Assembly (NCBI GenBank): GCA_964631415.1
Contig: CAZVZC010000015.1
Span: 1-39,757, forward strand
Reading direction: 5' to 3'
Length of the DNA: 39,757 bases
DNA from: an uncultured archaeon
Lineage (GTDB): Archaea; Asgardarchaeota; Thorarchaeia; Thorarchaeales; Thorarchaeaceae
Shown: in pieces, positions 21,471-34,765 of the stretch
Layout of the letters: every line of letters starts with the position of its first letter
Position numbering within the stretch: the first letter of the stretch is position 1
The notes under the pieces: model-generated
Seen by the model: the letters and a program-made list of their open reading frames with translations, nothing else
What the model was told of the DNA's origin: nothing
The model's database searches: none
Made by a program: the position numbers and the translations under genes

Positions 21471-23390
21471 ATGAGCAGGAAGGTCCCAGTCACAAACCCT
21501 TGGGACTCTGTCAAGGGGCTCGTCATCCGACTCTTGGCGGAAGCGACGACCTTGGAGAGCGGGAGGGTCCAAGAGTCAGTCGAGATACCGCCGGACCCGA
21601 CGCTTGGAGACCTGGCCGCGACTGTTGCTTTCCAACTGGCCAAGCAGCTCAACAAGAACCCTGTCACCATCGCCGCAGATATAGCCATCAAGATGGCAGA
21701 GCGGATCAAGTCTGAGCCCGTCCTTCTTCGTATAGAGTCAAAGGGGCCATATGTGAATGTCTTTCTCAATCGGGGTCAGTTCGCCAGATACGCTGTCGAG
21801 GCTGCGAATGCTCTGGGTCAACAGTACGGGAGAACCGGTGCTTACACCGGTAATCGTGCCTTGATCGAGTTCCCGGCAGTAAACCCGTCGAAACCATGGC
21901 ACATAGGTCATGCAAGGAATGCAGTGATTGGCGACACCCTAGGGAATACCCTCGCGGCAGCTGGTTATGATGTGGTCAAACTGGACTACATCAACGACTT
22001 GGGACTGCAGATAGCACAGCTATGCTGGAGAATGATGCAGGGGCCCCTGCCCGAACTACAGCCAAGCATGAAATACGACCAGTACCTTGGCCGGCTCTAC
22101 GTTGAGGCCCAGAAATCCTTCGAAACTGATGAGCAGGCTGAGAAAGAGATCCGTGAGGTGGCGAAGCAACTAGAAGACCTCAACTCAGAGGCTGCCAACA
22201 CCAGCGCTGCTATGGTGACAAAGTGTCTGCTTGCACAATGCCAGACCGCATACCGCATGGGTGTCTATCATCAGTATCAAGTCTGGGAAAGTATGATTGC
22301 GCACAGCGGCCTGCTCGAACTGGCGAGAGAACTCATGTTGAAATGTGAGAATGTGGTCAAGCTCGAGGAGGGTGAAAAGGCAGGGTGCATGGTGGTCCGA
22401 CTGGACACTATTGAAGAGTTCAAGGACATGCAGGAGCCCTACAAGGTCCTCTTCAGGTCTGACGGGACAAGGACCTACACTGGGGCAGACGTTGCCTTGC
22501 AGATGTGGAAGTTCGGCATCATTCAGGACCCGTTCCGCTATCAAGTCTTCGATCACCAGCCGAATGGTAAGGACGTCCTCCGAACCTCACTGAAAGGACG
22601 GAAGTCACGCATCGGGAAGTTCGATGTTGTGTTCAATGTCATTGGCTCAGAACAGGCCCAACCGCAGAGACTGATCTACACTATCCTCGACTTGCTGGGA
22701 TACAAGAAAGAGAGTGAGAATTCTCACCACATTGCATACGCGTTTGTAGACGTCGAGGGCACCGATCTGTCAGGTAGAAAGGGAACTTGGATAGGCTACT
22801 CCTGCGACGAGGTTCTCGACAAGGCAACAGAACTCGCTAGAGAAGAGGTCGCAAAGAGAAACCCAGAAGAGAGTGATAAGTTCAAGGACAAGGTTGCGAC
22901 ACAAGTCGGCATCGGTGCAGTAAGGTACATGCTGCTCAAAGCCTCTCCTGACAGGAAGATCACTTTCAGATGGAGCGAAGCATTGGACTTCGATGGGGAT
23001 GCCGCTCCATACCTTCAGTACTCCCACGCGAGAGCTCAGAGAATCCTTGAGAAAGCTGGTGAGGTCGGCTCGGCGCCGGCGGACTTAACGCTCTTGTCGT
23101 CCGAGGTCGAGTTTGCTCTGGTGAAGGCGATTGCCACGTTCCCCGAAGAAATGCTCGAAATAGTCAGGGGACTCAAAAAGAGCACATGGGGTACTAGCTT
23201 CGACTGCAACAGGCTCACATCATACTGCTACGGACTGGCCAACCTGTTCAGCAGGTTCTATGACTCGTGCCCAGTGCTCAAAGCTGATCCAGCCGTGGCT
23301 GCGGCCCGACTAGAACTCGTGAAGGCCTTCAGGACAACAATGGGAAACTGCCTAGAAGTGCTTGGGATACCGGTAGTGGAGAGAATGTGA
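21471..23390 (+). CDS. argS: Arginine--tRNA ligase
   Basis: NPSKPWHIGHARN (HIGH), YINDLGLQ, RSDGT..Y, LSGRKG, PYLQYSHAR, FY..CPVL. Confidence 0.95.
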   Translation: MSRKVPVTNPWDSVKGLVIRLLAEATTLESGRVQESVEIPPDPTLGDLAATVAFQLAKQLNKNPVTIAADIAIKMAERIKSEPVLLRIESKGPYVNVFLNRGQFARYAVEAANALGQQYGRTGAYTGNRALIEFPAVNPSKPWHIGHARNAVIGDTLGNTLAAAGYDVVKLDYINDLGLQIAQLCWRMMQGPLPELQPSMKYDQYLGRLYVEAQKSFETDEQAEKEIREVAKQLEDLNSEAANTSAAMVTKCLLAQCQTAYRMGVYHQYQVWESMIAHSGLLELARELMLKCENVVKLEEGEKAGCMVVRLDTIEEFKDMQEPYKVLFRSDGTRTYTGADVALQMWKFGIIQDPFRYQVFDHQPNGKDVLRTSLKGRKSRIGKFDVVFNVIGSEQAQPQRLIYTILDLLGYKKESENSHHIAYAFVDVEGTDLSGRKGTWIGYSCDEVLDKATELAREEVAKRNPEESDKFKDKVATQVGIGAVRYMLLKASPDRKITFRWSEALDFDGDAAPYLQYSHARAQRILEKAGEVGSAPADLTLLSSEVEFALVKAIATFPEEMLEIVRGLKKSTWGTSFDCNRLTSYCYGLANLFSRFYDSCPVLKADPAVAAARLELVKAFRTTMGNCLEVLGIPVVERM

Positions 23391-23391
23391 T

Positions 23392-24741
23392 TCATCCAGA
23401 TGTCACTTGAGCCGACTCGACGACAATCGATGGCGTCACCATGGTTCCAGTCGCCCTCGTATCAGCGCCCACTCTGTGGACCCTCTGCAGAAGGTCGCGC
23501 ATGTTGACACCGACAAGCGTGCTCTTGACAGGATGCTTCACTTCTCCGTCCTTTATGTAGAATCCTTCCATTATCATGGCACTCAAGTCGCCAGTTGTCA
23601 TGTTTGGTCTGTCCCCAGTGTTGCGACATAGGACACCAACTCTGACTTCTGAAACAAGATCGTCAAGCGTTCCTTTCCCAGGAGTGATTATGAAATTGGA
23701 ACTCGCAATGGATGGCGTGCCGGCGTACGAGGGACGACTTGCGTTGCCTGTGTTCTTGATCCGGTCCTTGTTTGCTGTATAGGAGTTGTGTAGAAGACTC
23801 TTCAGGACGCCTCCACTCAGAATCTCAGTGCGCTGTGACGGCACGCCCTCTGCGTCGAACACACGCGATCCGACGCCCCCCTTGAGGACACCGTCATCAA
23901 CTATGTGCAATTCCTCAGAGGCGATTCTAGCTCCGATGGCATCCGAGATGTATGACCGCCCGAACTGCACCTCTTCTGCATTGATGGCTCCAGCGAAGCC
24001 ACCTCCAATCACTGTACTAACAGCAAGAGGAGCCAATATCACAGGCATCACCCCACCCTCGACGGTCTTGGCACCCAGGCAGTGTAGGGCATTCTCCGAT
24101 GATGACCTGCCCACCCATTCCGGATCTATGTCTTTGAGGCGTCGCGAGATCTGGTATTCGTAGCTGGCAGTCTGATCGCCTTCTTCTTTGATCGTGGGGT
24201 AAGTGTACAGGGTTACAGAAGTGGTCTGGTCAGAGAGTGAGATTCCCTGTGAACTGACGATGGCCTTTGTGCCTGACGAAACGCTCAGTTGGGCCTCGAT
24301 GGCGAACTTCTTGCCAGCGAGCACAGCCTTGGCTGAGTCCACAGCTCTGATCACTAGCTCTGCGGCATCGTCTGATTGCATGCTGACAATGGCACGGTCA
24401 TAGAGACCAGTCACTGCGGGGTAGCGCTCCTCTGAGGACGGGAGACTCACGAAGCTAGGGTCGGCGACGGACGCTTTCGCGAGCCCTACAGAGTTCTTGG
24501 CCGCTTCTTCAATGTCTTCATCAAGCAGAGTTGTTACGTAAGCAAAGCCCACACGCTTGCCGATCACTGATCTGATTCCGCACCCTGCATCGCGCCTCTC
24601 CGAAGCACTCTTTATGGCACTGTTCTCAACATCGATTGAGAATGATCTCGCTGAGGCCAGATACACCTCAGCTTGTTCTGCTCCAAGGCGTTCCGCTGTT
24701 TTGACCGCTTTCTCGCCAATCGCCAACAACTGCTGTTTCAC
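23392..24741 (-). CDS. pmbA: TldD/PmbA family protein, PmbA/TldE-type subunit
   Basis: AEVY, GIRSV..KRVGFA, FDAEGVP, TGNA.R, TGDLS; no HExxxH motif. Confidence 0.88.
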   Translation of the reverse strand: MKQQLLAIGEKAVKTAERLGAEQAEVYLASARSFSIDVENSAIKSASERRDAGCGIRSVIGKRVGFAYVTTLLDEDIEEAAKNSVGLAKASVADPSFVSLPSSEERYPAVTGLYDRAIVSMQSDDAAELVIRAVDSAKAVLAGKKFAIEAQLSVSSGTKAIVSSQGISLSDQTTSVTLYTYPTIKEEGDQTASYEYQISRRLKDIDPEWVGRSSSENALHCLGAKTVEGGVMPVILAPLAVSTVIGGGFAGAINAEEVQFGRSYISDAIGARIASEELHIVDDGVLKGGVGSRVFDAEGVPSQRTEILSGGVLKSLLHNSYTANKDRIKNTGNASRPSYAGTPSIASSNFIITPGKGTLDDLVSEVRVGVLCRNTGDRPNMTTGDLSAMIMEGFYIKDGEVKHPVKSTLVGVNMRDLLQRVHRVGADTRATGTMVTPSIVVESAQVTSG

Positions 24742-24742
24742 T

Positions 24743-26128
24743 CTAGATACCTCCTACTGGCACACCACGAATCCGAGCGTGCGGTCCCCCACTGTTGTCG
24801 GGCACCAGCTGCCCATTCTTTCCACATGTACCCGCCTCCATCTCGAAGTCCTTGGCAATCCCATCTATCTTGGCGAGCACGTCTAGGATTTGCCCTGCAA
24901 GAGAAACATCACGCACCATCTGCCCCAATTCCCCCTTCTCAATGAGATAACCGTAACTCGCTTGGAACATGAACTGCCCCTTAGACGGCTCAGTGTAGCC
25001 ATAGTTGAAATCGCATAGCAGCGCCCCTTGCTTGGTATCCGCAATGAGATCTTCCACCTCCCAGTCACCACGTTCCATGAAGGTGTTGCTCATGCGAGGA
25101 ATAGGCTCATACATGAAACTCTGGGCCCTAGCTGCGCCATTGGGTTCCATTCCCAGTCGGCTGGATGACTCAAGACTATGGAGCAGGTCTGTCAGAATGC
25201 CGTTCTTGACAAGATTCCTCTTACGAGTCTTTGTGCCCTCCCAATCGTATTCGAAAGTGCCTCTCTGATTGGCAAGCGTTGGATCGTCGCTCAGGTTGAG
25301 AATCTCCGGGCCCACCTTCGTTCCGACCTTATCTTCAAGGACGGTCGCATGAGCCGGCCAACAATCTGCCTCACATGCATGGCCAAATGCCTCATGAACC
25401 ATGACACCATTCAGTATAGGATCCATGATTACATCATAGACGCCGCCCTTTGCGGCCACTGACGAAAGCAGCTCAACAGCCAGTTTTGAAGACTCCTCTC
25501 CCAGAACCTGCACTTGCTCTGTCTGCATCTGCTCAAAGCCGCCCCTCACGCCGACTGACTTGTAGGCACGCTGTCTGTTGGCACCATCCTTGGCTGTCGC
25601 CATGCAGGTGATCCGTGGCAGAGAGTTCTCTATGTGGACAGCCGTGCCCAAGGAGTTGGCAACATATAGCTCGGTCGACATGTCAGCATATGTTGTTCGG
25701 GTGTTGGAAATCCTCTTATCGAATGCCCGAGTTTGGTCGTCTATCATCTTGGCGAAGCCGACCTTCTCTTCTATTGACACGTCCTGAAAGGGTCGCTTGA
25801 CCTCTAGATGGACACTGTCAGTGAAGGCCTTCCCCTCAATGCTGAACTTAGCAGCCACACGTTCATGTGTGGCAAGCGCCAGCTTGGCGACGGACTCACC
25901 AGTGCGACGCATACCGCTCGGACTGAGGTCGGTGCTCTGACCGAATGCCCAAGCCCCATCAAAAAAGGCCCTTATCCCGGCACCCTTCAGTCGCGACATG
26001 GTCGCTCGCTTTGTGATTCCATCGGTCATCTCAATGTTTGTCGTGATGGTGTTCTCAATACGGACATCAGAGAAAGTGGCCCCAACCCTGATGGCTGCAT
26101 CAATGGCTGCTCTTGCAAGACTCTCCAT
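24743..26128 (-). CDS. tldD: TldD metalloprotease subunit
   Basis: HEAFGHACEAD, YDWEG, PIPRMSNT, GTCGKNGQ, GGPH. Confidence 0.92.
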   Translation of the reverse strand: MESLARAAIDAAIRVGATFSDVRIENTITTNIEMTDGITKRATMSRLKGAGIRAFFDGAWAFGQSTDLSPSGMRRTGESVAKLALATHERVAAKFSIEGKAFTDSVHLEVKRPFQDVSIEEKVGFAKMIDDQTRAFDKRISNTRTTYADMSTELYVANSLGTAVHIENSLPRITCMATAKDGANRQRAYKSVGVRGGFEQMQTEQVQVLGEESSKLAVELLSSVAAKGGVYDVIMDPILNGVMVHEAFGHACEADCWPAHATVLEDKVGTKVGPEILNLSDDPTLANQRGTFEYDWEGTKTRKRNLVKNGILTDLLHSLESSSRLGMEPNGAARAQSFMYEPIPRMSNTFMERGDWEVEDLIADTKQGALLCDFNYGYTEPSKGQFMFQASYGYLIEKGELGQMVRDVSLAGQILDVLAKIDGIAKDFEMEAGTCGKNGQLVPDNSGGPHARIRGVPVGGI

Positions 26129-26319
26129 AATCGGCCGTCCCTGCCAACATAGCGCCATTGACCCGGAATATAACAGATTTGCACACCGCATTCACACCGA
26201 TTGACGAGCAAGAGTCGGCCTCAAACTGGGTTTCCCTGCTAATACCGACGTGATACACGGCCAATTATTCAAGACTGAACCACGGTACAGCTTGAGCCCA
26301 GAGGTCCGGAGGAACACAG

Positions 26320-27873
26320 TTGAACGAGGATCCTTCAGTCCATGCATGTCAAGTGTGCGGAAGCAATCGAGCCACTCATCTCTGTGAGGACTGCGGAGAG
26401 ATACTGTGTCTGGACTGTATGGAAACGAAGTCCAGTGTGCATTATGTGTGCAGTAATTGTCATCATGCGCTAGGGACACCGCGGCCGGGGGAGAAGTTCG
26501 AGAGATGCCCCGAATGTGACTCGAAAGAGCTGAGCCTTGGCAAACGCCTAGAAGAGATCTGTCCGAGATGTCACTCCGCGCGTACGACTCCAATCGAGGA
26601 GAGGAGAAGGGCTCTTGCACAGGACATGCGGCGTGCAATCATGAGCATCCAGTACGGCCACATAAGGCTGAGAGACTTCACGAATAGGCTCACAACAGCG
26701 AAAAGGCTTCTAGTTTCTCTCAGGATGGCCAACTTCCTCCACTATCGGTGGTTGGAAGATAAAATCGAGGACATACAGACTGAGCTTCCGGCCATCAAGA
26801 ACAGGGTTGCCAATCAGGCTGAGATCGTAGCCAAGCAGATGAGCGCTGAAACCAAGGGCTTTCTCGACTATAACACATGGTCAGCAGCTCAGTTCCCCTT
26901 CATAGGGGGAGTAACCAACCGCATAACAGAACTTGGCAATCAGTACAGGCGCAATGTGGATGAGGCTCTTGAGAGTGTACGACTGACAATCTCGGACCTG
27001 GAACAGCAACTGGATGGACTGGACTACTACAAGAAGCAGTTTGCAGGTTTCTACGAAACTGCCGAGCTATCGGTCAACGAACTGCCAGTCTGTGCCTTGC
27101 CTGAGATAAGGATAGCAGGCAGTGACTTCCTGAAAAATGACAAGGCCCTGGGCACGCTCTACATAACGAACAGGAGACTCGTCTTTATAGCTGAGACAGG
27201 TCGGCTACGCAAGAAGACTGACATCGTATTCGACTTCCCTCTCATGTATCTGAAAAGCATTGAAGGGGACGGTCGTCTGAGGAAGAGAGTTGTCCTGAAG
27301 ATGAAGCAGGGCGACGTTAGGCTGTCCTGTAACGAGCAGACAGAGAAAGTGCTGCCAGACTACGTTGAGATCGCCAGGAAGTTTGACAAGTACATGCAAT
27401 CGGATCTTCAGAGGACGAGAAAGCTCGGCCAATCAGATACCACCATCAGCGATGTCAGACTCAAAATCGAGGAGCTTGTCTACTCACTTCTCTCCTCAGG
27501 CGCCGCGGTGAACCAAGGCAGAGGAGCCACACAGGCAATCGGCGCATATCCGAAACAAATGGGGCCATATCCGGGCGTCACCCAGTTTCGAGGTGACTTC
27601 CAGCAGAGCAGCAGTCCCTACTTGCGTGACCGACTGAGAAGGGACCTCGAAGGCATGTTTGAGAACCGAGGACAGCCACATGGACCCGATGGCTCAAACA
27701 GTGGCATGTCCAACAGCGACATGTTGGTCATCAATGATGCGATAAGGGACACTGTGCACCTCTTCAGGAGCGGGCAACTGGTGCCCGAGGACTTCATCAG
27801 GCGATACAAGGGTCTCATGCGTGACTCGTACGACACTAAGAGAAGACTCGAGTCTGCTCCAAGATATGGATAG
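26320..27873 (+). CDS. ESCRT-I-like multidomain protein: B-box/Zn fingers, coiled coil, PH/GRAM(GLUE)-like domain, steadiness box
   Basis: CQVC..ATHLCEDCGEILCLDC B-box-like plus three more CxxC; long helical region; GTLYITNRRLVF PH/GRAM motif; C-terminal INDAIRDTVHLFRSGQL..EDFIRRYKGLMR resembling the Vps23/37 core; adjacent to ESCRT genes. Confidence 0.72.
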   Translation: MNEDPSVHACQVCGSNRATHLCEDCGEILCLDCMETKSSVHYVCSNCHHALGTPRPGEKFERCPECDSKELSLGKRLEEICPRCHSARTTPIEERRRALAQDMRRAIMSIQYGHIRLRDFTNRLTTAKRLLVSLRMANFLHYRWLEDKIEDIQTELPAIKNRVANQAEIVAKQMSAETKGFLDYNTWSAAQFPFIGGVTNRITELGNQYRRNVDEALESVRLTISDLEQQLDGLDYYKKQFAGFYETAELSVNELPVCALPEIRIAGSDFLKNDKALGTLYITNRRLVFIAETGRLRKKTDIVFDFPLMYLKSIEGDGRLRKRVVLKMKQGDVRLSCNEQTEKVLPDYVEIARKFDKYMQSDLQRTRKLGQSDTTISDVRLKIEELVYSLLSSGAAVNQGRGATQAIGAYPKQMGPYPGVTQFRGDFQQSSSPYLRDRLRRDLEGMFENRGQPHGPDGSNSGMSNSDMLVINDAIRDTVHLFRSGQLVPEDFIRRYKGLMRDSYDTKRRLESAPRYG

Positions 27874-27888
27874 AGTGCGGAGCGGTGA

Positions 27889-28512
27889 TTAGACGCCTAG
27901 CTCCTTCTCAAGCGACTTGATAGCTTCCTCGAGCTCCTCGGCCTCGGTCACTGGTCGCGTGCCTGAAGGCGCGCCAGCAACCCCTGCAGCTGCATCTATC
28001 TCCTCCATAGCAGCTGCCATGTCCTCTGAGGTCACCTGACTCTCTTTTGTCGAAACGAGAGCCTCCTCTGATATGCCGCTCTCAATCTCGAACTCCTCAA
28101 GCCTGTGAGTAATCTCATCCAGATTCTGAATAACCTTCGTCGAGTCTGTTGCCTCGCTCAACGTGCCAAGTATCTTCGCAACCTGTTCAACTGCTACTCC
28201 AGTCTTAGCGGTAGTCTGGGCCCGAGTGATGTGAGCGAGCACCCTCAGGAGATGAAGACGTGAACGATCAACTGACAGAGCAAATCTCCTGAAGCGGATC
28301 ATCTCCGCCGCGTAGGTCCTGTATGCGTCCGTGTGACCCTCCTTTCGGGCACGAACTGCTCGGGCCTTAGTATCGCGCTCCTCTTTCTCAAGCCTGTTCC
28401 TCTCACGCTCAAGCTGCTTAGTCAGTATTCTGAGCTGGCTTGTGGCCTCTGTGATATCGGGCTTCCTACGACCCCACGACATCGCCTTCTTGATTGTACC
28501 CAATGGGCTCAC
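27889..28512 (-). CDS. ESCRT-III Snf7-family protein, Vps2/24/46 (CHMP1-3-like) class
   Basis: LRILTKQLERERNRLEKEE..TK.....ARKEG...AYRTYA.EMIR; basic N-half and acidic C-half; C-terminal amphipathic helix EELEEAIKSLEKEL (MIM1-like). Confidence 0.88.
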   Translation of the reverse strand: MSPLGTIKKAMSWGRRKPDITEATSQLRILTKQLERERNRLEKEERDTKARAVRARKEGHTDAYRTYAAEMIRFRRFALSVDRSRLHLLRVLAHITRAQTTAKTGVAVEQVAKILGTLSEATDSTKVIQNLDEITHRLEEFEIESGISEEALVSTKESQVTSEDMAAAMEEIDAAAGVAGAPSGTRPVTEAEELEEAIKSLEKELGV

Positions 28513-28543
28513 CGCATCCAGGGATAGACTCCCAAGTCGATTT

Positions 28544-28587
28544 CGAAGGTTGTCCGTTTAAACCTTCGCAGAAGGCAACGAACCTTC
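28544..28587. promoter_or_regulatory. Tandem inverted repeats overlapping a TATA-like box in the ESCRT-III/vps4 divergent promoter
   Basis: CGAAGGTT-N9-AACCTTCG (28544-28568) spans TTTAAA at 28557-28562; GAAGG-N7-CCTTC at 28571-28587. Confidence 0.45.
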
Positions 28588-28656
28588 ACCAAGAATGAGT
28601 CCGAGCAACCTCGATCCAGACCACTAACACACAAACTCTTAACCGCTGAAGAGCAA

Positions 28657-29892
28657 ATGGCACGCGAACACGAAATGTCAGGATCAGACGATGACAGGCT
28701 GGACTTGGGACTTAAGGCTCTCCTGGAGAAGGCCATTGACCTTGATGACAGAGGCATGAAGAAGGAGGCCTGCCAATACTACCTCAAGGCCAGCAAGATC
28801 CTCATCAAGCTCTCCAATTCGACCTCACTGCCATCACTCCGCAAGCACTACTTTGACCGAGCTCAGGAGTGTGTGGACCGCGTGAAGCGCATCTCTGGAG
28901 CAAAGGGAGTCGCTGGTCCACCAGACAGTCTCGGAAGACTGGTGACACAACCAAGAGAGAAAACCGTGGCACGGTCGGCATCAGAGGAAACCGGGGAAGT
29001 CGACGAGGACACAAAGAGGCTTCGTGAGATGACTGCGGACACCATCATAACTGAACGGCCCGATGTCAAGATGTCGGAAGTCGCGGGGCTAGAGGAGGCC
29101 AAGCAGGCAATCCAAGAGGCTGTGGTCGCCCCGATGAAACACCCGGAGCTGTTCAAGGGAAAGGCAAGACAGCCATGGAGGGGGATCCTGTTCTATGGAC
29201 CAGCAGGCTGTGGTAAGACTCTCATAGCAAAGGCTGTTGCCTCCGAGGTGAATGCGACTTTCTTCAACGTGTCAGCTGGGAACATAGTGAGCAAGTGGTT
29301 GGGAGAGTCTGAGAAGCTTGTCATGACACTGTTCGAGATGGCAAGGAAGAATCAACCATCGATCATCTTCGTGGACGAACTTGACTCTGTGGGTGTTTCC
29401 AGATCCGATCACGATGTTGGAGGCGAGCGACGACTCAAGACCCAACTGCTGACTGAGCTTCAGGGAGTGGCCAGCGACCCGAAGGAACGAGTCACAGTCA
29501 TTGGTGCCACCAACCTACCATGGCAACTTGATTTTGCCCTTAGGTCTAGGTTTGAGAAGAGGATCCACATTCCCCTCCCGGGAAAGGCATCACGACGAAC
29601 GGTGTTTGAGCTGCATATGGAGGATGTGGAGGTCTCCCACGATGTTGACTTCGACGAACTCGCAGACCTGACACAGGGCTACAGTGGTCGGGACATCAGC
29701 ATTGTGTGCAGGGAAGCAGCCATGGAGCCTATTAGAGATCTCCAGAGCACTGGAGAAATGGACCGCGATGGCCCGATTGAAAACCTCCGACCCGTTTCAA
29801 GACAGGATTTCCTCCGAGCCGTTGACAGCATCGGACCCGGTACCTCTCCCGAGGATGTGAAGAAGTATGTCGATTGGGCGGAGGCAACATAG
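28657..29892 (+). CDS. vps4: Vps4 AAA+ ATPase with N-terminal MIT domain
   Basis: MIT (LLEKAIDLD..G...EAC.YY.KA...Y.DRA); GPAGCGKT, SKWLGESEK pore loop, IIFVDELDS, RRLKTQLL, ATNLPW.LD.ALR.RFEKR. Confidence 0.93.
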   Translation: MAREHEMSGSDDDRLDLGLKALLEKAIDLDDRGMKKEACQYYLKASKILIKLSNSTSLPSLRKHYFDRAQECVDRVKRISGAKGVAGPPDSLGRLVTQPREKTVARSASEETGEVDEDTKRLREMTADTIITERPDVKMSEVAGLEEAKQAIQEAVVAPMKHPELFKGKARQPWRGILFYGPAGCGKTLIAKAVASEVNATFFNVSAGNIVSKWLGESEKLVMTLFEMARKNQPSIIFVDELDSVGVSRSDHDVGGERRLKTQLLTELQGVASDPKERVTVIGATNLPWQLDFALRSRFEKRIHIPLPGKASRRTVFELHMEDVEVSHDVDFDELADLTQGYSGRDISIVCREAAMEPIRDLQSTGEMDRDGPIENLRPVSRQDFLRAVDSIGPGTSPEDVKKYVDWAEAT

Positions 29893-29895
29893 TCC

Positions 29896-30624
29896 GTGAG
29901 TGTGAAGGAACGACGAAGGCAGAAGGAGCGACCCAAGGCTCGAAGTGAGTCCAAGTTTCAGGAAGGTTCAGTGGACACTGAAGCAAACATCGAAAGCGTC
30001 GTCACCTCCGAACAGATCGAAACACCTCTAGAAACGCTCGAAGCAACTCCAGTTGTTGAGTCTGAGCCGCAGGTCTCGGAGCCAATCACCGAGGCAACTG
30101 CAGAGGCTCTCGTGCCACAGGTCCTTCTGCCGCGCTGGGGTGACAACAGAGAGTCACAATGGATGTACCAGATTCCTCCCAGAGATGAGGACAGAAACAT
30201 GTGGATGGATGAATGGGCCGACTTCGTGATCCAGTGGACCCAGTCAGAAGGCCTGCACGTCCTCTCTGTTTCAGCCTTCATCAAGGAACCACCTTTCAGA
30301 GACATGCTTGGAAAAGTGGAAGCTTTCAGACTGATTGGAAACACGCTGGTCGAGAAGGGAGTTGCGGAATGGCTTGATGACAAGAAGCGCCAACTCCGAG
30401 TATACTGGAGACCCCTTGAGGAATGGGCCGACATGATATATGGGTGGGCTATTGAAACGGGCAATCTACACCTCGATGTCAAGTCCATAATCATACAGGA
30501 AGCGGGCAAGGAGTTTGCCACTCTCCCTGAGAAAGACCTGCATCAAGTAATGGAGATGCTTGTCGACAGAAGGGTGGCAGAATGGGTGGATAGGAAGAAG
30601 GGGGCAATACTAATCCGAGTGTGA
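29896..30624 (+). CDS. vps25: ESCRT-II subunit Vps25 homolog with acidic N-terminal extension
   Basis: W...WADFV..W, PF, LVEKG.AEW....LRVYWRPLEEWADMIY.W, EF..L....L...L.....AE tandem winged helices; directly downstream of vps4. Confidence 0.85.
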   Translation: MSVKERRRQKERPKARSESKFQEGSVDTEANIESVVTSEQIETPLETLEATPVVESEPQVSEPITEATAEALVPQVLLPRWGDNRESQWMYQIPPRDEDRNMWMDEWADFVIQWTQSEGLHVLSVSAFIKEPPFRDMLGKVEAFRLIGNTLVEKGVAEWLDDKKRQLRVYWRPLEEWADMIYGWAIETGNLHLDVKSIIIQEAGKEFATLPEKDLHQVMEMLVDRRVAEWVDRKKGAILIRV

Positions 30625-30629
30625 TTCGC

Positions 30630-31367
30630 CTATACCGAGCCGTCCCTGCCTCGAAGTCCCGGGAAGTAATATCGTCCCCCGGTCGAGAAACGGATGTCAG
30701 CGACAGCCATGCCTGAGTCAACTAGGCTAGACAGGACTTGGCGCGCGTGATCCTCAGACCACTTCAGCTGTATCATGAGTTCCTCTATCGAAACTTGCCC
30801 CTTTGTAGCGGCTATGTTGATGACGTCAGCTTGGTCTCTGCGCAGCTCAAGCGGACGCAGCTCGACAACCTTTACCCCGCCCCTCAGTGTTCTGATGCCA
30901 GGGATGAGACCATGTTCTGCAACACGGTTCACGGCCTCAATCACGTCGTTGTAGCTCACGGACTTGAGTTCTGGGAGAAGGCGCACTACTTCGACTATGA
31001 GTTCCGCCAGTCCCATGAGGCCCTTAGATGCATTTGCCGTCGCAACATCAAGCACGGCCAACCCGATATGGTCGTAGTATTCCTCGGTCGTCATGCCCTC
31101 AATCGAAGCCATTCCACTCTTGCCGTGAAGGCCCAGCATAACCGACGCGTCCGGGAATGACTCAAGCACTCTCTCTTGGTCGATGAAGTTGACAGGATCG
31201 ATGCCCATGCGTCGCAGGTCTTCGATACCGCCCTTGACCTCTGCAAGAAGCGCATCTGATTCCCTCTGATATGACCGTACGTCGACGGCGCCCATGTCGT
31301 ACATTTTCTTGAGCTGGTCCAGCGTCGCAATCGACGCATAGAGCTCGGATTGGAGTCGCTCACTCAT
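30630..31367 (-). CDS. Fusion of Vps28 N-terminal (ESCRT-I) domain and EAP30/Vps22-36 (ESCRT-II) winged helices
   Basis: N-terminus SELYASIATLDQLKKMY..G.V....Y....LL; C-terminus YYDHIGLAVLDV...GLMGLAEL...VSYNDVIEAV...PLELRRDQ..VI..A...G.VS...L.WS..ARQVL..LV..G....D...YYFP. Confidence 0.82.
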   Translation of the reverse strand: MSERLQSELYASIATLDQLKKMYDMGAVDVRSYQRESDALLAEVKGGIEDLRRMGIDPVNFIDQERVLESFPDASVMLGLHGKSGMASIEGMTTEEYYDHIGLAVLDVATANASKGLMGLAELIVEVVRLLPELKSVSYNDVIEAVNRVAEHGLIPGIRTLRGGVKVVELRPLELRRDQADVINIAATKGQVSIEELMIQLKWSEDHARQVLSSLVDSGMAVADIRFSTGGRYYFPGLRGRDGSV

Positions 31368-31464: not shown

Positions 31465-32841
31465 CTACGGTGTCAGTCTATCGCGGTCTCTTGGGAACAG
31501 AGTCGCTTCTCTGATGTTGTCAATTCCCAGCACCTGCATTGTCAGGCGTTCGACACCCAGACCGAGTCCTCCGTGAGGAGGTGCACCGTACCTGAATGGG
31601 TCGATGTAGAAACTGAAGTTGTCTGGATTGAACCCCTTTGCCTTGAAACGCTCCACGAGAAGGTCGTGGAGGTGTATGCGCTGGCCGCCAGTTGTGATTT
31701 CCATGCCCTTGTACAAGAGATCGAAACTCTCTGTCATTCCTTCATCTGTCAGACTTGGCATAGTGTAGGCCGGTCGCAGCTCAAGAGGATAGTGGGTCAC
31801 GAACACCATGTCAGTTCCATACTTCGTGGGGAAGACCTCTCCCAGAATGTGCTCGCAGTCCGGGTCGAGGTCGTCGGTGTATGACAACTGCTTCCCTGTT
31901 TCGTTGACTATGTCAATGGCCTCTTTGTACTTCACTCTCTTGAACGGTACCTTTGGGATCTTCAGATCGATTCCGAGTAGATCAAGCTCAGCGGCGGCCT
32001 CCTTGGCAGTCTTCTCAAGGGAGTGGTGCAGCATCTTCTCCTCCATGCTCATCACATCCTCAACATCGCTGATCCACGCCATCTCGAAGTCAAACGAAGT
32101 ATACTCGTTGACGTGACGGCGGGTGTTGTGTTTCTCGGCACGGAACACAGGGGCGATTTCAAAGACTCTGCCGAACCCGGCCAGGAGCATCAGCTGCTTG
32201 TAGAACTGCGGGCTCTGTGCAAGGTAGGCCTTTCTATCGAAGTACTTGACCTCGAAGAGATTCGCGCCACCTTCTGTGGCTTCCGCTACGATCTTTGGTG
32301 TGTGTATCTCGACAAAATCGTTCTTCTCAAGAAACTCACGCGCATGCTTCACGAGGCAATGTTGCACTCTGAATACTGCATTCACCTTGGGTTTGCGAAG
32401 GTCCAGAACACGGTGGTTGAGCCGGGTTTCGAGGTCTATGTCAGCTTTGCCTTCCACGATGTCGATTGGCAGTCGTTCAGCAGTGTTGATGAGGCGAATC
32501 TTGCTGGGTATGACTTCCACTCCGCGTTCGACCTGATCTGCGACGACCACTGTTCCACGAACAATCACTGCCGATTCTGGCTTGAGCTGGCCAGACAGTT
32601 CGAACACATCTGAGGGGACCTTCGCCTGGGGTATTGTCACCTGAACCGTGCCACGCTCGTCCCTCAGGATCAGAAACTTGATCCTTCCCTTGTCACGGAG
32701 GATATGGACCCATCCGATCAGCGTCACTTCCTTGCCAGCAGTCTTTGGGGTCACTTCGCTTGTGAAATGAGAACGCCTATCCTTGCCAATGCGCTCGACA
32801 CCAGCCTTGGCGTAGAAGTCTTGGTCATCTCGATCACTCAT
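31465..32841 (-). CDS. aspS: Aspartate--tRNA ligase (archaeal/eukaryote-like type)
   Basis: OB fold GWVH..RD.G.IKF..LRD; ATEGGANLF, AYLAQSPQFYKQ, FRAEK, GGQRIH, PPHGG.GLGVER. Confidence 0.95.
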   Translation of the reverse strand: MSDRDDQDFYAKAGVERIGKDRRSHFTSEVTPKTAGKEVTLIGWVHILRDKGRIKFLILRDERGTVQVTIPQAKVPSDVFELSGQLKPESAVIVRGTVVVADQVERGVEVIPSKIRLINTAERLPIDIVEGKADIDLETRLNHRVLDLRKPKVNAVFRVQHCLVKHAREFLEKNDFVEIHTPKIVAEATEGGANLFEVKYFDRKAYLAQSPQFYKQLMLLAGFGRVFEIAPVFRAEKHNTRRHVNEYTSFDFEMAWISDVEDVMSMEEKMLHHSLEKTAKEAAAELDLLGIDLKIPKVPFKRVKYKEAIDIVNETGKQLSYTDDLDPDCEHILGEVFPTKYGTDMVFVTHYPLELRPAYTMPSLTDEGMTESFDLLYKGMEITTGGQRIHLHDLLVERFKAKGFNPDNFSFYIDPFRYGAPPHGGLGLGVERLTMQVLGIDNIREATLFPRDRDRLTP

Positions 32842-33052
32842 TTCTCATCAACCAACCGTGTATGAGGACTCAATGCTGAACGCCGACGAATGTCGCTCTA
32901 CTCTGCCGCAATGCCACTTCTTGGACACATTAAGAGGCTTTTGGATGTGAAAACAGGGCAAGTCGAGTTGCAGAGGAAAAAGCCGGGAAACACTGCAGAC
33001 GATGCTGCAGCGTTCCCATATCGTCTGACATCATGCGGATGTATTGGTGAAA

Positions 33053-33265
33053 TCACATCGGCGCCGACACAAGCACGTAGACCCTCTCTCTCGCATCGTC
33101 GCTGTGCTCCTCTTCTTGGATGAGACCTAAGGCCCTAAGCCGACTGACACCGTAGCTGACTGTTCTTGGTGGCAGATAGCTCAGCGTGATCAGGTCTTGC
33201 CGGGACAAACGGCGCCTGTCCTTAAGGAGCACGTAGACGAACTTCGCAGAGGGAGGCAACGACAA
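33053..33265 (-). CDS. Small winged-helix transcriptional regulator (MarR/Lrs14-like)
   Basis: LPPSAKFVY.LL...LSRQDL...LPPRTVSYG...L...GLI...DARERVY, a common archaeal family pattern. Start uncertain. Confidence 0.8.
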   Translation of the reverse strand: MSLPPSAKFVYVLLKDRRRLSRQDLITLSYLPPRTVSYGVSRLRALGLIQEEEHSDDARERVYVLVSAPM

Positions 33266-33388
33266 GAACGACTGCCGCGCAAACGCGATTCCCCCATTGG
33301 GTCATTGCCATGTACTGCTACCTCCTGAGTTGTCTTGTGGTTCGAACCAGAATCCATCCAAATAAGGATTGGCATAATCGAAATGCGG

Positions 33389-34765
33389 CTATTCCTTCTT
33401 CAGAATGAGTATCCACTCCCCCGACATGCGCTCCTTTCTTGGTATGTGAATGAAGTGCCTGATGAGCCCTGAGAAAAATCTCTTCTCGAGTTTGAGGCCA
33501 ACCTCGTCAGAAACGGCAATCTCGGAGAGAATGTCCTGGGATCCTATCTTCACCCCACGGATGGTGTTGTTGCCAATCGCCACGCAATAGTGGCCGCCCG
33601 GTTTCAGAACTCTCAGTGTTTCACGGAACTGCTCCTTCATGTCCATGAAGAACCTGTATGTGATATAGGACCGACGGGGGTCGACTTTGTGAATCTTCTT
33701 CAGTAATGGATCAAGCGTTACAAAGCCAGACTGTCGGAGATCCGCATACTCCTCCTTGTAGACAGTTTCAGTGCCTATGTAATGCCGCTTCACATCAGAT
33801 AGTGGTCCCTTAGTCATGAGACCCAGCCAGTACATCTCGAGTTGGTGGGTGCGTGGATAGTCGACTGCGTTGATGTAGGGAGGCGATGTGACCGCGAGGT
33901 CGATTGTCTCATCTCCAAGACCGGTCCTAGTCGCAGTTCCTTCACACACTTTGGCAGCCGGAAGACCCTCTGTCTGGCAAACACGTGAGAATTCCACCAT
34001 TGCACCAGTCTGTCTGGAGAGGGCTGAGATGAAACGACTCACAGCCATGCCCTCAGCAACTTCCTTGTGAAGTCGCTTTCTAACAACTGTGCGTGTGCAG
34101 TGAGAGTCGGCGTTCGAAACCTCCCTTATTATTGAGGAGAAGACCACTCTCAAGAAGTCATGGATGTTTTCTCGTTCCTCAGAGTAGCCGCCTTCAATAG
34201 CTCGTGTCTTTCGAGCCATGTCAATTGCTTCTCTTATGATTCCGAGCTCACGCAGAACATAAGGTTCAAACCAGCAGTCTCTATACGGAAAGCCCGGGAC
34301 TTGAGGCTCATGCGACCGATCCTCCGACATCCCCCGGACTCGTTCGACCACCCAGAGCTTCGTTCGTTCTAGCAGACCACAGTCGAGTGGAGTCGTCTTC
34401 ACCTTTGTCAATAAGCGCGCTACCGGATCGATGTCTATCCCGATACCGAGCCGGCGGTTCAACATCGCCTCTAGGACTGTAGTACCGCTGCCGCACATGG
34501 GGTCCAAAACAGTTGCGTCGACTTGAGAGTACATCCGGATCAAGTAACGAGGAAGTTCTGGAAAGAACTTTGCAGGAAACTTGTGTATCCCGTGGGTCAG
34601 GTATGTCTGGTCTTTGCTGATGACTAGGATATGAGAACCGTCTGGAATGTCAAAGCCAGCAGGAATGTCCCCCTTTATCTCTGTGACACCATTGACATCC
34701 CGATTGCCAAGACCGGCGGCGGATTGCTCTAAGATGTCTTGGTTCCGAGATGAAACAGTGTCCAT
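33389..34765 (-). CDS. DNA N4-cytosine/N6-adenine methyltransferase (SPPY, probably m4C), no adjacent endonuclease
   Basis: THGIHKFPAKF, motif I DPMCGSGT before motif IV VTSPPY, LKPGG. Confidence 0.85.
   Translation of the reverse strand: MDTVSSRNQDILEQSAAGLGNRDVNGVTEIKGDIPAGFDIPDGSHILVISKDQTYLTHGIHKFPAKFFPELPRYLIRMYSQVDATVLDPMCGSGTTVLEAMLNRRLGIGIDIDPVARLLTKVKTTPLDCGLLERTKLWVVERVRGMSEDRSHEPQVPGFPYRDCWFEPYVLRELGIIREAIDMARKTRAIEGGYSEERENIHDFLRVVFSSIIREVSNADSHCTRTVVRKRLHKEVAEGMAVSRFISALSRQTGAMVEFSRVCQTEGLPAAKVCEGTATRTGLGDETIDLAVTSPPYINAVDYPRTHQLEMYWLGLMTKGPLSDVKRHYIGTETVYKEEYADLRQSGFVTLDPLLKKIHKVDPRRSYITYRFFMDMKEQFRETLRVLKPGGHYCVAIGNNTIRGVKIGSQDILSEIAVSDEVGLKLEKRFFSGLIRHFIHIPRKERMSGEWILILKKE

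Follow-up and report, generated by a model that had tools for sequence, protein, structure and literature searches.

A Thorarchaeial ESCRT locus lacking a ubiquitin module and encoding a Vps28N–Vps22 fusion protein

A cluster of five ESCRT genes within a 39,757 nt stretch of DNA from an uncultured member of the Thorarchaeaceae (the window) raises the question of how such a system is put together, and from where it arose, when no ubiquitin module accompanies it. An ORF check of the window returns all five genes at the coordinates given in the initial annotation, which was made from the letters alone (Table 1), and Pfam, profile and structure matches agree with the domains it assigned to each. 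Snf7, AAA/MIT/Vps4_C, ESCRT-II and EAP30 are all matched by Pfam, whilst the weaker steadiness box (SB) and Vps28 N-terminal (Vps28N) assignments are confirmed with profiles.

Table 1. Genes and sub-features of the ESCRT locus, in window coordinates
Feature	Position	Strand	Details
Znr_CC_PH_SB protein	26320..27873	+	517 aa; TTG start, GGAGG 7 nt upstream; ThorAB25_08990 orthologue, 59% identity
ESCRT-IIIA	27889..28512	-	207 aa; Snf7; ThorAB25_09000 orthologue, 66% identity
Vps4 AAA ATPase	28657..29892	+	411 aa; MIT, AAA, lid, Vps4_C; ThorAB25_09010 orthologue, 72% identity
Vps25	29896..30624	+	242 aa; PF05871; ThorAB25_09020 orthologue, 47% identity
Vps28N–Vps22 fusion, whole ORF	30630..31367	-	245 aa; ThorAB25_09030 orthologue, 73% identity
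Vps28 N-terminal module (steadiness box + extra helices)	31098..31367	-	fusion residues 1–84
Vps22/EAP30 tandem winged helices	30630..31097	-	fusion residues about 91–245

The genes follow a + - + + - strand pattern, and do not constitute one operon because two of the junctions are convergent (15 and 5 bp) and another is a divergent gap of 144 bp. A synteny survey recovered the same gene order in 51 of 59 loci; no exception occurs among the 31 full-length ones, and the Zn-PH-SB and fusion genes are linked in every complete locus. The arrangement is thus conserved, but it is not new, as the same cluster has been published for Thorarchaeota AB_25, where it comprises SB, ESCRT3A, Vps4, Vps25 and Vps22 genes (ThorAB25_08990, 09000, 09010, 09020 and 09030, respectively; PMC9192718). 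AB_25 is a different species that shares the five genes, their order and strands, and the flanking AspRS and TldD genes; tblastn on its contig finds the five orthologues in the same order, at the identities given in Table 1. Its ESCRT proteins have been cloned and tried by yeast two-hybrid, and Thorarchaeota are stated to be without ubiquitin (Hatano et al. 2022, PMC9192718). The locus, both of its unusual architectures and the loss of ubiquitin are already in print, the two proteins concerned having been described between 2022 and 2024.

The first of these, the 517-aa protein, begins with a Zn cluster of 12 Cys in six CxxC pairs (residues 10–84; 90–100% conserved in 38 sequences), and a domain search of the 38 family members gives B-box and DZR matches that support three N-terminal Zn-binding units. 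This cluster lies where Vps23/TSG101-type proteins have their UEV domain, and neither UQ_con nor UEV appears among the 25 families listed for the 38 members. An AlphaFold model (pLDDT 82) displays helices at residues 92–241 and a strand-rich domain at 256–353, so that a helical stalk (92–241) is followed by a PH/GRAM-like domain (approximately 243–360), a disordered linker and the SB (460–512). Residues 243–360 are predicted to adopt a PH fold, with structure matches at Z 11–12.8 that include MTMR2 PH-GRAM (12.8), Lam6 (11.8) and EAP45 GLUE (11.6); 17 columns of the domain are mostly basic, and its net charge is +6. PF11605 (GLUE) is matched by 3 of the 38 members (best 0.017) and by nothing in a search of the window's genome. 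The suggestion that a PH/GLUE-like domain resides on an ESCRT-I-type subunit hence holds for the PH fold on an SB protein, but the matches do not single out GLUE. The SB itself was missed by single-sequence Pfam searches and found with family profiles: the C-terminus matches the yeast Vps23/STP22 core (E 9.5e-6) and TSG101, as well as the C-termini of Asgard UEV-Vps23 proteins (E about 1e-9), and Vps23_core is found in 5 of the 38 members (best 3e-6). In its Zn units, coiled coil, PH fold and C-terminal SB, the protein has the architecture of Znr_CC_PH_SB (asCOG cog.011556: three Zn ribbons, coiled coil, PH and SB), which Makarova et al. 2024 (PMC10936438) called ancestral and proposed as an ESCRT-I component, its PH domain being membrane-associated by analogy with Vps36. 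It is also present in 12 Asgard genomes that have ubiquitin, one of which (locus L097) carries it beside an intact UEV-Vps23/Vps28/Vps22 set; this rules out the protein as a Thorarchaeales-specific answer to ubiquitin loss.

The 245-aa ORF gives an EAP30 match (2.4e-14) and a weak N-terminal VPS28 match (0.035) in Pfam, and by profile its residues 1–90 match yeast and human Vps28 in PDB (E 4e-5 to 8e-4). Alignment to Asgard profiles with hhalign returns Vps28N at 99.3%, confirming the earlier reading of a Vps28 hairpin attached covalently to ESCRT-II winged helices. In the structural model, residues 1–80 resemble chain 6vme_E, from the human ESCRT-I headpiece (Z 11.3, rmsd 2.1, 78 aligned), whilst residues 87–241 resemble residues 86–242 of human ESCRT-II 3cuq_A (Z 14.3, rmsd 4.0, 153 aligned), with 1w7p_A at Z 13.7. 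[quoted passage not shown] The N-terminal profile of the Thorarchaeales proteins matches 14 of 15 Vps28 sequences from outside the order at E <= 1.2e-6 and none of 14 outside Vps22 (best E 17), whilst the C-terminal profile matches all 14 of the latter at E <= 1e-24.

Amongst the sampled Asgard genomes this chimera is found only in the window's order, and all 14 other Asgard Vps22 carry an unrelated N-terminus, so that an SB fusion as a general Asgard Vps22 trait is rejected. Makarova et al. 2024 described it as a family trait (SB-fused Vps22, cog.002769), residues 1–70 of the thorarchaeotal KXH75178.1 being assigned there to the VPS28 N-terminal SB (HHpred 99%, Table S3; PMC10936438), whereas the passages of PMC9192718 on ThorAB25_09030 label it simply 'Vps22', with no mention in that text of a Vps28 hairpin. 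Elsewhere, 13 of 18 Vps28 loci from outside the order have vps28 directly upstream of, and on one strand with, vps22, and one genome (G057, locus L099) has the Thorarchaeales gene order, although its vps28 and vps22 are unfused and it has a second ESCRT-III-like gene. As vps28 directly precedes vps22 outside the order, fusion via deletion between these neighbours is suggested as the origin of the chimera. The fusions form one clade in a winged-helix tree (97/98), in which the deep branches, and the Vps22 lineage giving rise to the fusion, are not separated.

The remaining genes are more conventional in content. Sequence matches of the 207-aa ORF to Snf7 (5.6e-10) and, in PDB, to CHMP1B (2.4e-7), CHMP2A and CHMP3 as the best hits place it as an ESCRT-IIIA protein of the Vps2/24/46 class, CHMP1/2/3-like, and a MIM1-like C-terminal helix was spotted by eye. 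The 411-aa ORF is matched by AAA (3.7e-40), MIT and Vps4_C, and the 242-aa ORF by the ESCRT-II/Vps25 tandem winged helix (2.5e-15), preceded by an acidic N-terminal extension of ~78 aa (16 D/E within the first 78 aa). ESCRT-IIIB, the class reported to bind Vps25, is encoded on a different contig of the same genome.

Searches for true ubiquitin, E2 and UEV gave no match in the window's genome (85% complete). Ubiquitin-like proteins of the ThiS/MoaD type are present in it. Ubiquitin occurs in 0 of 37 relatives of the order compared with 20 of 23 other Asgard genomes, and E2 in 1 of 37 (below the cut-off) compared with 20 of 23. No canonical full-length Vps28 exceeds the Pfam cut-off in the window's genome or its family relatives, and a canonical UEV-Vps23, Vps28 and ubiquitin set elsewhere in the genome was looked for and not found. 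The claim that no ubiquitin module is present thus stands; that of a 'minimal' system does not, as ESCRT-IIIB is off-locus and another Vps22, its N-terminus intact, is encoded at a different place in the genome. This paralogue (~780 aa; contig C2:45450-47870, unlinked to the locus) matches positions 24 to 241 of the Asgard Vps22 profile, keeps the N-terminal helices (hhalign 89%) and includes a strand-rich segment of Ig-like appearance. Of 36 family genomes, about 29 carry it at full length; searches of seven family genomes did not recover it, among them every one of the three from a single genus (96–99% completeness), so it is not core. A helical protein of ~415 aa with weak VPS28 matches occurs in all 36 relatives and was not found in the window's genome, where its gap is probably one of assembly. 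It has a weak Vps28-CTD match in PDB (2j9w, E 0.03), hhalign gives no support for the Vps28 similarity, and a BAR domain was likewise not confirmed; we take it to be, probably, the BAR-Vps28 of Eme 2023.

The hairpins and tandem winged helices of the locus are homologous to those of the eukaryotic ESCRT-I headpiece (Vps23-Vps28-Vps37) and ESCRT-II (Vps22-Vps36-Vps25x2). Unlike these complexes, it encodes no UEV, no Vps28 C-terminal bridge and no separate Vps36, its PH domain is carried by the SB protein, and it links ESCRT-I and II modules covalently; where Vps36 has GLUE fused N-terminally to the winged-helix core, the EAP30 protein here has the Vps28 module instead. The UEV-Vps23-Vps28 protein of Heimdallarchaeota (HeimAB125_14070; PMC9192718) is likewise a lineage-specific ESCRT-I gene fusion in Asgard archaea, although there the partner of Vps28 is the upstream Vps23 and ubiquitin binding is retained, whereas the window's fusion joins Vps28N to the downstream Vps22.

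Contact between the two unusual proteins is plausible from structure prediction. The SB of the Zn-PH-SB protein and the Vps28 hairpin of the fusion are predicted to pair with an ipSAE of 0.80, compared with 0.01 for the best of 3 controls; at least 95% of contacts recur between runs, and both partners have a pLDDT of at least 80. The ipSAE mark is reached by 58 of 80 solved pairs and 2 of 110 mismatched pairs. The predicted interface brings together conserved A11/A14/T15 on the fusion side with F492/Y496/M500/R501/Y504 on the SB side, and resembles the solved Vps23-Vps28 headpieces 2F66, 2P22 and 6VME. Because such look-alikes are solved, the passing score indicates likeness only, not binding by this copy.

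Taken together, the evidence makes it probable that this is the core Thorarchaeia ESCRT locus, derived by reduction from the ESCRT cluster general to Asgard archaea and free of ubiquitin. Neighbouring vps28 and vps22 genes pointing the same way would have fused, with loss of the C-terminal bundle of Vps28 and the N-terminal helices of Vps22, leaving an ESCRT-I headpiece hairpin tied covalently to ESCRT-II winged helices. The Zn-PH-SB protein, an older Asgard component, may dock on anionic membrane via its basic PH domain, with its Vps23-type SB predicted to pair with the fusion's hairpin. The winged helices of the fusion would bind Vps25, which could nucleate ESCRT-IIIB and the local ESCRT-IIIA, and Vps4 would recycle the polymers, leading to membrane budding or cutting. 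Against this, Hatano et al. 2022 note possible Thorarchaeota ESCRT-III contacts that bypass Vps25 (PMC9192718), the Zn-PH-SB and fusion genes are not co-transcribed, and other SB-like ORFs of the genome (one on contig C21 at E 4e-4; others weak) could compete for the hairpin.

Alternatively, the locus may be one part of a distributed ESCRT-I/II layer, in which the fusion and the ~780-aa Vps22 would form a heterodimer akin to Vps22-Vps36, and other SB- or Vps28C-bearing proteins would give cargo specificity. The Vps22 profile match, retained helices and broad distribution of the paralogue speak for this, as does the weak Vps28-CTD match of a ~415-aa protein present in every relative; yet the paralogue is unlinked and not core, hhalign does not back the Vps28 similarity, and Thorarchaeota Vps22 self-interacts in two-hybrid assays (PMC9192718), leaving such a layer unlikely. 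The same self-interaction is in keeping with a different proposal, namely that the hairpin, sitting in place of the lost N-terminal helices, is a mere replacement dimerisation module for a Vps22 homodimer, or a relic, with Zn-PH-SB working separately. The residues predicted to face the SB are, however, the most conserved of the Vps28 module across Thorarchaeales fusions and free Vps28, and the linkage of the two genes in all complete loci also makes this role highly improbable.

The initial annotation favoured a reciprocal swap, with GLUE passing to ESCRT-I and the Vps28 hairpin to ESCRT-II, which would have produced a self-sufficient three-protein hybrid replacing ubiquitin recognition. In its favour, the two architectures do exist, structure prediction pairs the hairpins, and the fusion goes together with a lack of ubiquitin and E2 in the order, but this coincidence shows no causation, because fusion and ubiquitin loss are each a single event on one branch. 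Moreover, with Zn-PH-SB found in ubiquitin-bearing genomes and called ancestral, only the fusion is lineage-specific; Asgard Vps22/36 are about 250 aa and have no PH domain to swap away, the PH domain scores higher against PH-GRAM than GLUE, and ESCRT-IIIB is off-locus. A swap of this kind is scarcely credible.

Little weight attaches to the locus as a discovery, given what is in print. A bolder extension, in which one gene fusion replaced the Vps28C-mediated ESCRT-I/II bridge and the ~780-aa Vps22 was kept to serve both as a partner resembling Vps36 and as a cargo adaptor independent of ubiquitin, is quite unlikely, but if true would represent an independent origin of asymmetric ESCRT-II in an archaeon. 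The practical value of the locus is that its small ESCRT-I/II module, free of ubiquitin, lends itself to reconstitution for studying ESCRT targeting without ubiquitin, and the fusion offers a natural test of whether Vps28C mainly bridges ESCRT-I to ESCRT-II in Asgard archaea. The confinement of the fusion to one order also refines the published generalisation of SB-fused Vps22 as a trait of the Asgard family.

The region at 26320-31367 of the window is filled by five ORFs (strands + - + + -) encoding the Zn-CC-PH-SB protein, ESCRT-IIIA, Vps4, Vps25 and a Vps28N-Vps22 fusion, where SB denotes the steadiness box. Successive genes are separated by 15 bp at a convergent junction, 144 bp at a divergent one, 3 bp, and 5 bp at a second convergent one, and the locus is accordingly a cluster rather than a single operon. 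Pfam identifies Snf7, MIT-AAA-Vps4_C, ESCRT-II (Vps25) and EAP30 in the ORFs, the EAP30 protein also giving a weak VPS28 match at its N-terminus. The initial annotation of a five-gene ESCRT locus, domain reading included, is correct, and the locus is real and conserved: an identical order occurs in 51 of 59 loci, with the other 8 being short loci, and all 31 full-length loci conform. Of the flanking genes, AspRS recurs in 55/59 related loci and TldD in 47/59. One locus, L094 (G007:C21:158000-177999), is rearranged: its SB and ESCRT-III genes are inverted, and the SB gene is separated from vps4 by the tldD/pmbA-like pair. In the sister-family genome G037 the cluster is divided between two contigs (L092, L093), one harbouring fusion-vps25-vps4 and the other the SB gene, ESCRT-IIIA and a second putative ESCRT-III-looking ORF.

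The locus is, however, already known. Named close homologues are overwhelmingly from Thorarchaeota MAGs (nearest, 95 % identity), and the contig of Thorarchaeota AB_25, like the window, carries the same five genes (47-73 % identity). Hatano 2022 (PMC9192718) lists AB_25 SB, Vps22, Vps25, ESCRT3A, ESCRT3B and Vps4 and runs them in two-hybrid assays, states that Thorarchaeota are without ubiquitin, and proposes that the role of the headpiece falls to the free-standing SB protein. In Makarova 2024 (PMC10936438), Znr_PH_CC_SB is defined and its PH domain likened to that of Vps36, the same analogy as in the initial annotation; the paper also tabulates residues 1-70 of Thorarchaeota KXH75178.1 as a VPS28 N-terminal domain (99 %). 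Asgard Vps22 is described there as fused to SB; whilst that fusion is presented as a trait of Asgard Vps22, it is, in the genomes sampled here, restricted to the order of the window, Thorarchaeales.

A genuine chimera, the 245-aa protein joins a Vps28 N-module to Vps22. A profile of its residues 1-90, built from the order, matches 14 of 15 Vps28 proteins from outside it (E 1e-18 to 1e-6) and 0 of 14 such Vps22 proteins (best E 17), with the profile of the remaining residues matching all 14 of the latter. Profile-profile comparison gives 99.3 % for Vps28N, and only 0.6 % and 0.2 % for Vps28C and Vps22N, respectively. In the predicted structure, residues 1-80 resemble human headpiece chain 6vme_E (Z 11.3, rmsd 2.1), and there is a match to human ESCRT-II from residue 86 of 3cuq_A onward (Z 14.3). 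The fusion is found in 35/36 genomes of the family and in the sole sister-family genome, G008 displaying a paralogue alone; in a wider draw, the N-module is detected in 62/65 family genomes. The remaining Asgard genomes examined have separate genes matching the two halves; at 13 of 18 loci, vps28 directly precedes a co-directed vps22, and G057 (L099) has the Thorarchaeales gene order with the two still unfused. The fusions form one clade (support 97/98), and the simplest history would be that a single deletion in the order's ancestor removed the boundary between vps28 and vps22. This confinement to one order, with its likely origin, is a modest addition of the present analysis.

For the 517-aa protein, single-protein Pfam searches return only weak B-box and GRAM/bPH_3 matches. 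Six CxxC pairs (12 cysteines) are conserved in an alignment of 38 homologues, and the AlphaFold model (pLDDT 82) contains a Zn region, a helical stalk (92-241) and a strand-rich domain (256-353), from which a disordered linker leads to a hairpin (460-512). The profile of this hairpin matches yeast Vps23 (E 9.5e-6) and TSG101, and the C-termini of Asgard UEV-Vps23 (~1e-9) ahead of Vps28 hairpins (~1e-5); it is a Vps23-type SB. The middle domain, claimed to be GLUE-like, has a PH fold and is basic (17 columns with at least 70 % K/R; net charge +6). Its likeness to GLUE goes no further than its likeness to PH domains in general, structure comparison ranking MTMR2 PH-GRAM (Z 12.8) and Lam6 (11.8) before EAP45 GLUE (11.6).

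The asserted lack of a ubiquitin module is upheld. Neither ubiquitin nor E2/UEV was found in the window's genome, G000 (85 % complete); ubiquitin (PF00240) occurs in 0/37 relatives within the order versus 20/23 other Asgard genomes, and E2/UEV in 1/37 (below cut-off) versus 20/23. G000 does encode five ThiS/MoaD-type ubiquitin-like proteins over the cut-off and one ThiF/E1-like enzyme (contigs C1, C3, C8, C13, C19, C41; loci L199, L202-L206), both types being carried by many archaea. With regard to the two domain swaps proposed, Vps28N-Vps22 is lineage-specific, but PH-SB is not: the Zn-PH-SB protein is present in 12 ubiquitin-positive genomes and is therefore not tied to ubiquitin loss. In G043 (L097) its gene is clustered with UEV-Vps23, Vps28, a small Vps28C-like ORF and Vps22. 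Genome G041, of another family (93 % complete), encodes a Zn-PH-SB protein and a 797-aa ORF ending in Vps22, and has no matches to ubiquitin, E2 or a canonical Vps28; it is possibly a second ubiquitin-free Asgard ESCRT.

ESCRT parts and candidate parts outside the locus, and genes flanking it
Feature	Location	Strand	Remarks
Second ESCRT-III	G000:C2:91496-92152		Orthologue of ThorAB25_07240, ESCRT3B (by eye)
Second Vps22, C-terminal part of ~780-aa ORF	G000:C2:45450-47870	-	Also L091:5451-7871, L128
Helical protein, ~415 aa	L053:1447-2724 (genome G027) and orthologues		Weak Vps28-CTD similarity
SB-like small free-standing ORF	G000:C21:17984-18313	+	~66 aa from Met; E 4e-4
Other weak SB- or CdvA-like coiled-coil matches	G000:C2:75544-76191, C20:13951-17019, C2:50967-51134		E 0.002-0.5
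Flanking genes	Window 21471-26191 and 31465-34765		Putative ArgRS-like gene (by motif), pmbA/tldD-like pair, AspRS, 70-aa MarR-like gene, DNA methylase

The system is not the minimal one initially claimed, as ESCRT-IIIB and a second Vps22 are encoded elsewhere in G000. The ESCRT3B orthologue occurs in 23/24 family genomes and, because Vps25 binds ESCRT-IIIB according to Hatano 2022 (PMC9192718), the local ESCRT-IIIA is probably not the direct partner of Vps25. The ~780-aa ORF contains a coiled-coil region, a strand-rich, Ig-like-looking segment and a complete Asgard-type Vps22, with tandem winged helices and the N-terminal helices absent from the fusion. It is full-length in ~29/36 family genomes and the sister family, probably has a counterpart in G041, and falls in an Atlas cluster of 137 without a name; this second, intact Vps22 is one modest addition made here. 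Frameshifts, probably sequencing errors in the assembly, disrupt three genes of G003 (G003:C13:104460-105196; also G003:C3): those for the fusion, for ESCRT-IIIB and for the long Vps22. The ~415-aa helical protein is present in 36/36 relatives and many other Asgard genomes, and missing from the 85 %-complete G000. Its Atlas look-alike clusters are archaeal and without names, and the protein probably corresponds to the BAR-Vps28 described in Eme 2023 and Makarova 2024 (PMC10936438).

Co-folding of the SB (458-517) with fusion residues 1-90 gives a predicted complex with an ipSAE of 0.80 (best control, 0.01), at least 95 % contact agreement between runs and a partner pLDDT of at least 80. The ipSAE mark, passed by 58/80 solved and 2/110 mismatched pairs, is roughly applicable, own alignments being used here. 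As solved Vps23-Vps28 headpieces exist, a pass denotes likeness rather than binding. The interface, a further modest addition, is predicted to centre on A11, A14 and T15, the best-conserved positions of the Vps28 module. A working mechanism, which as a whole appears rather likely, would have the PH domain dock the Zn-CC-PH-SB protein on anionic membrane and the SB of that protein pair with the fusion's Vps28 hairpin. The winged helices of the fusion would bind Vps25, by analogy with eukaryotic ESCRT-II, and ESCRT-IIIB and IIIA would polymerise and Vps4 recycle them, as suggested by what is known of these families and by the two-hybrid results summarised in Hatano 2022. The covalent Vps28N-Vps22 link would make a Vps28C bridge unnecessary. 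Candidate selectors of cargo or site are the Zn cluster, or SB- or Vps28C-bearing proteins encoded elsewhere. Judged by sequence, the small SB-like ORF is a candidate third headpiece hairpin, and one of the weaker SB-/CdvA-like matches lies within an ORF of 1023 aa, flanked on both sides by hydrophobic segments.
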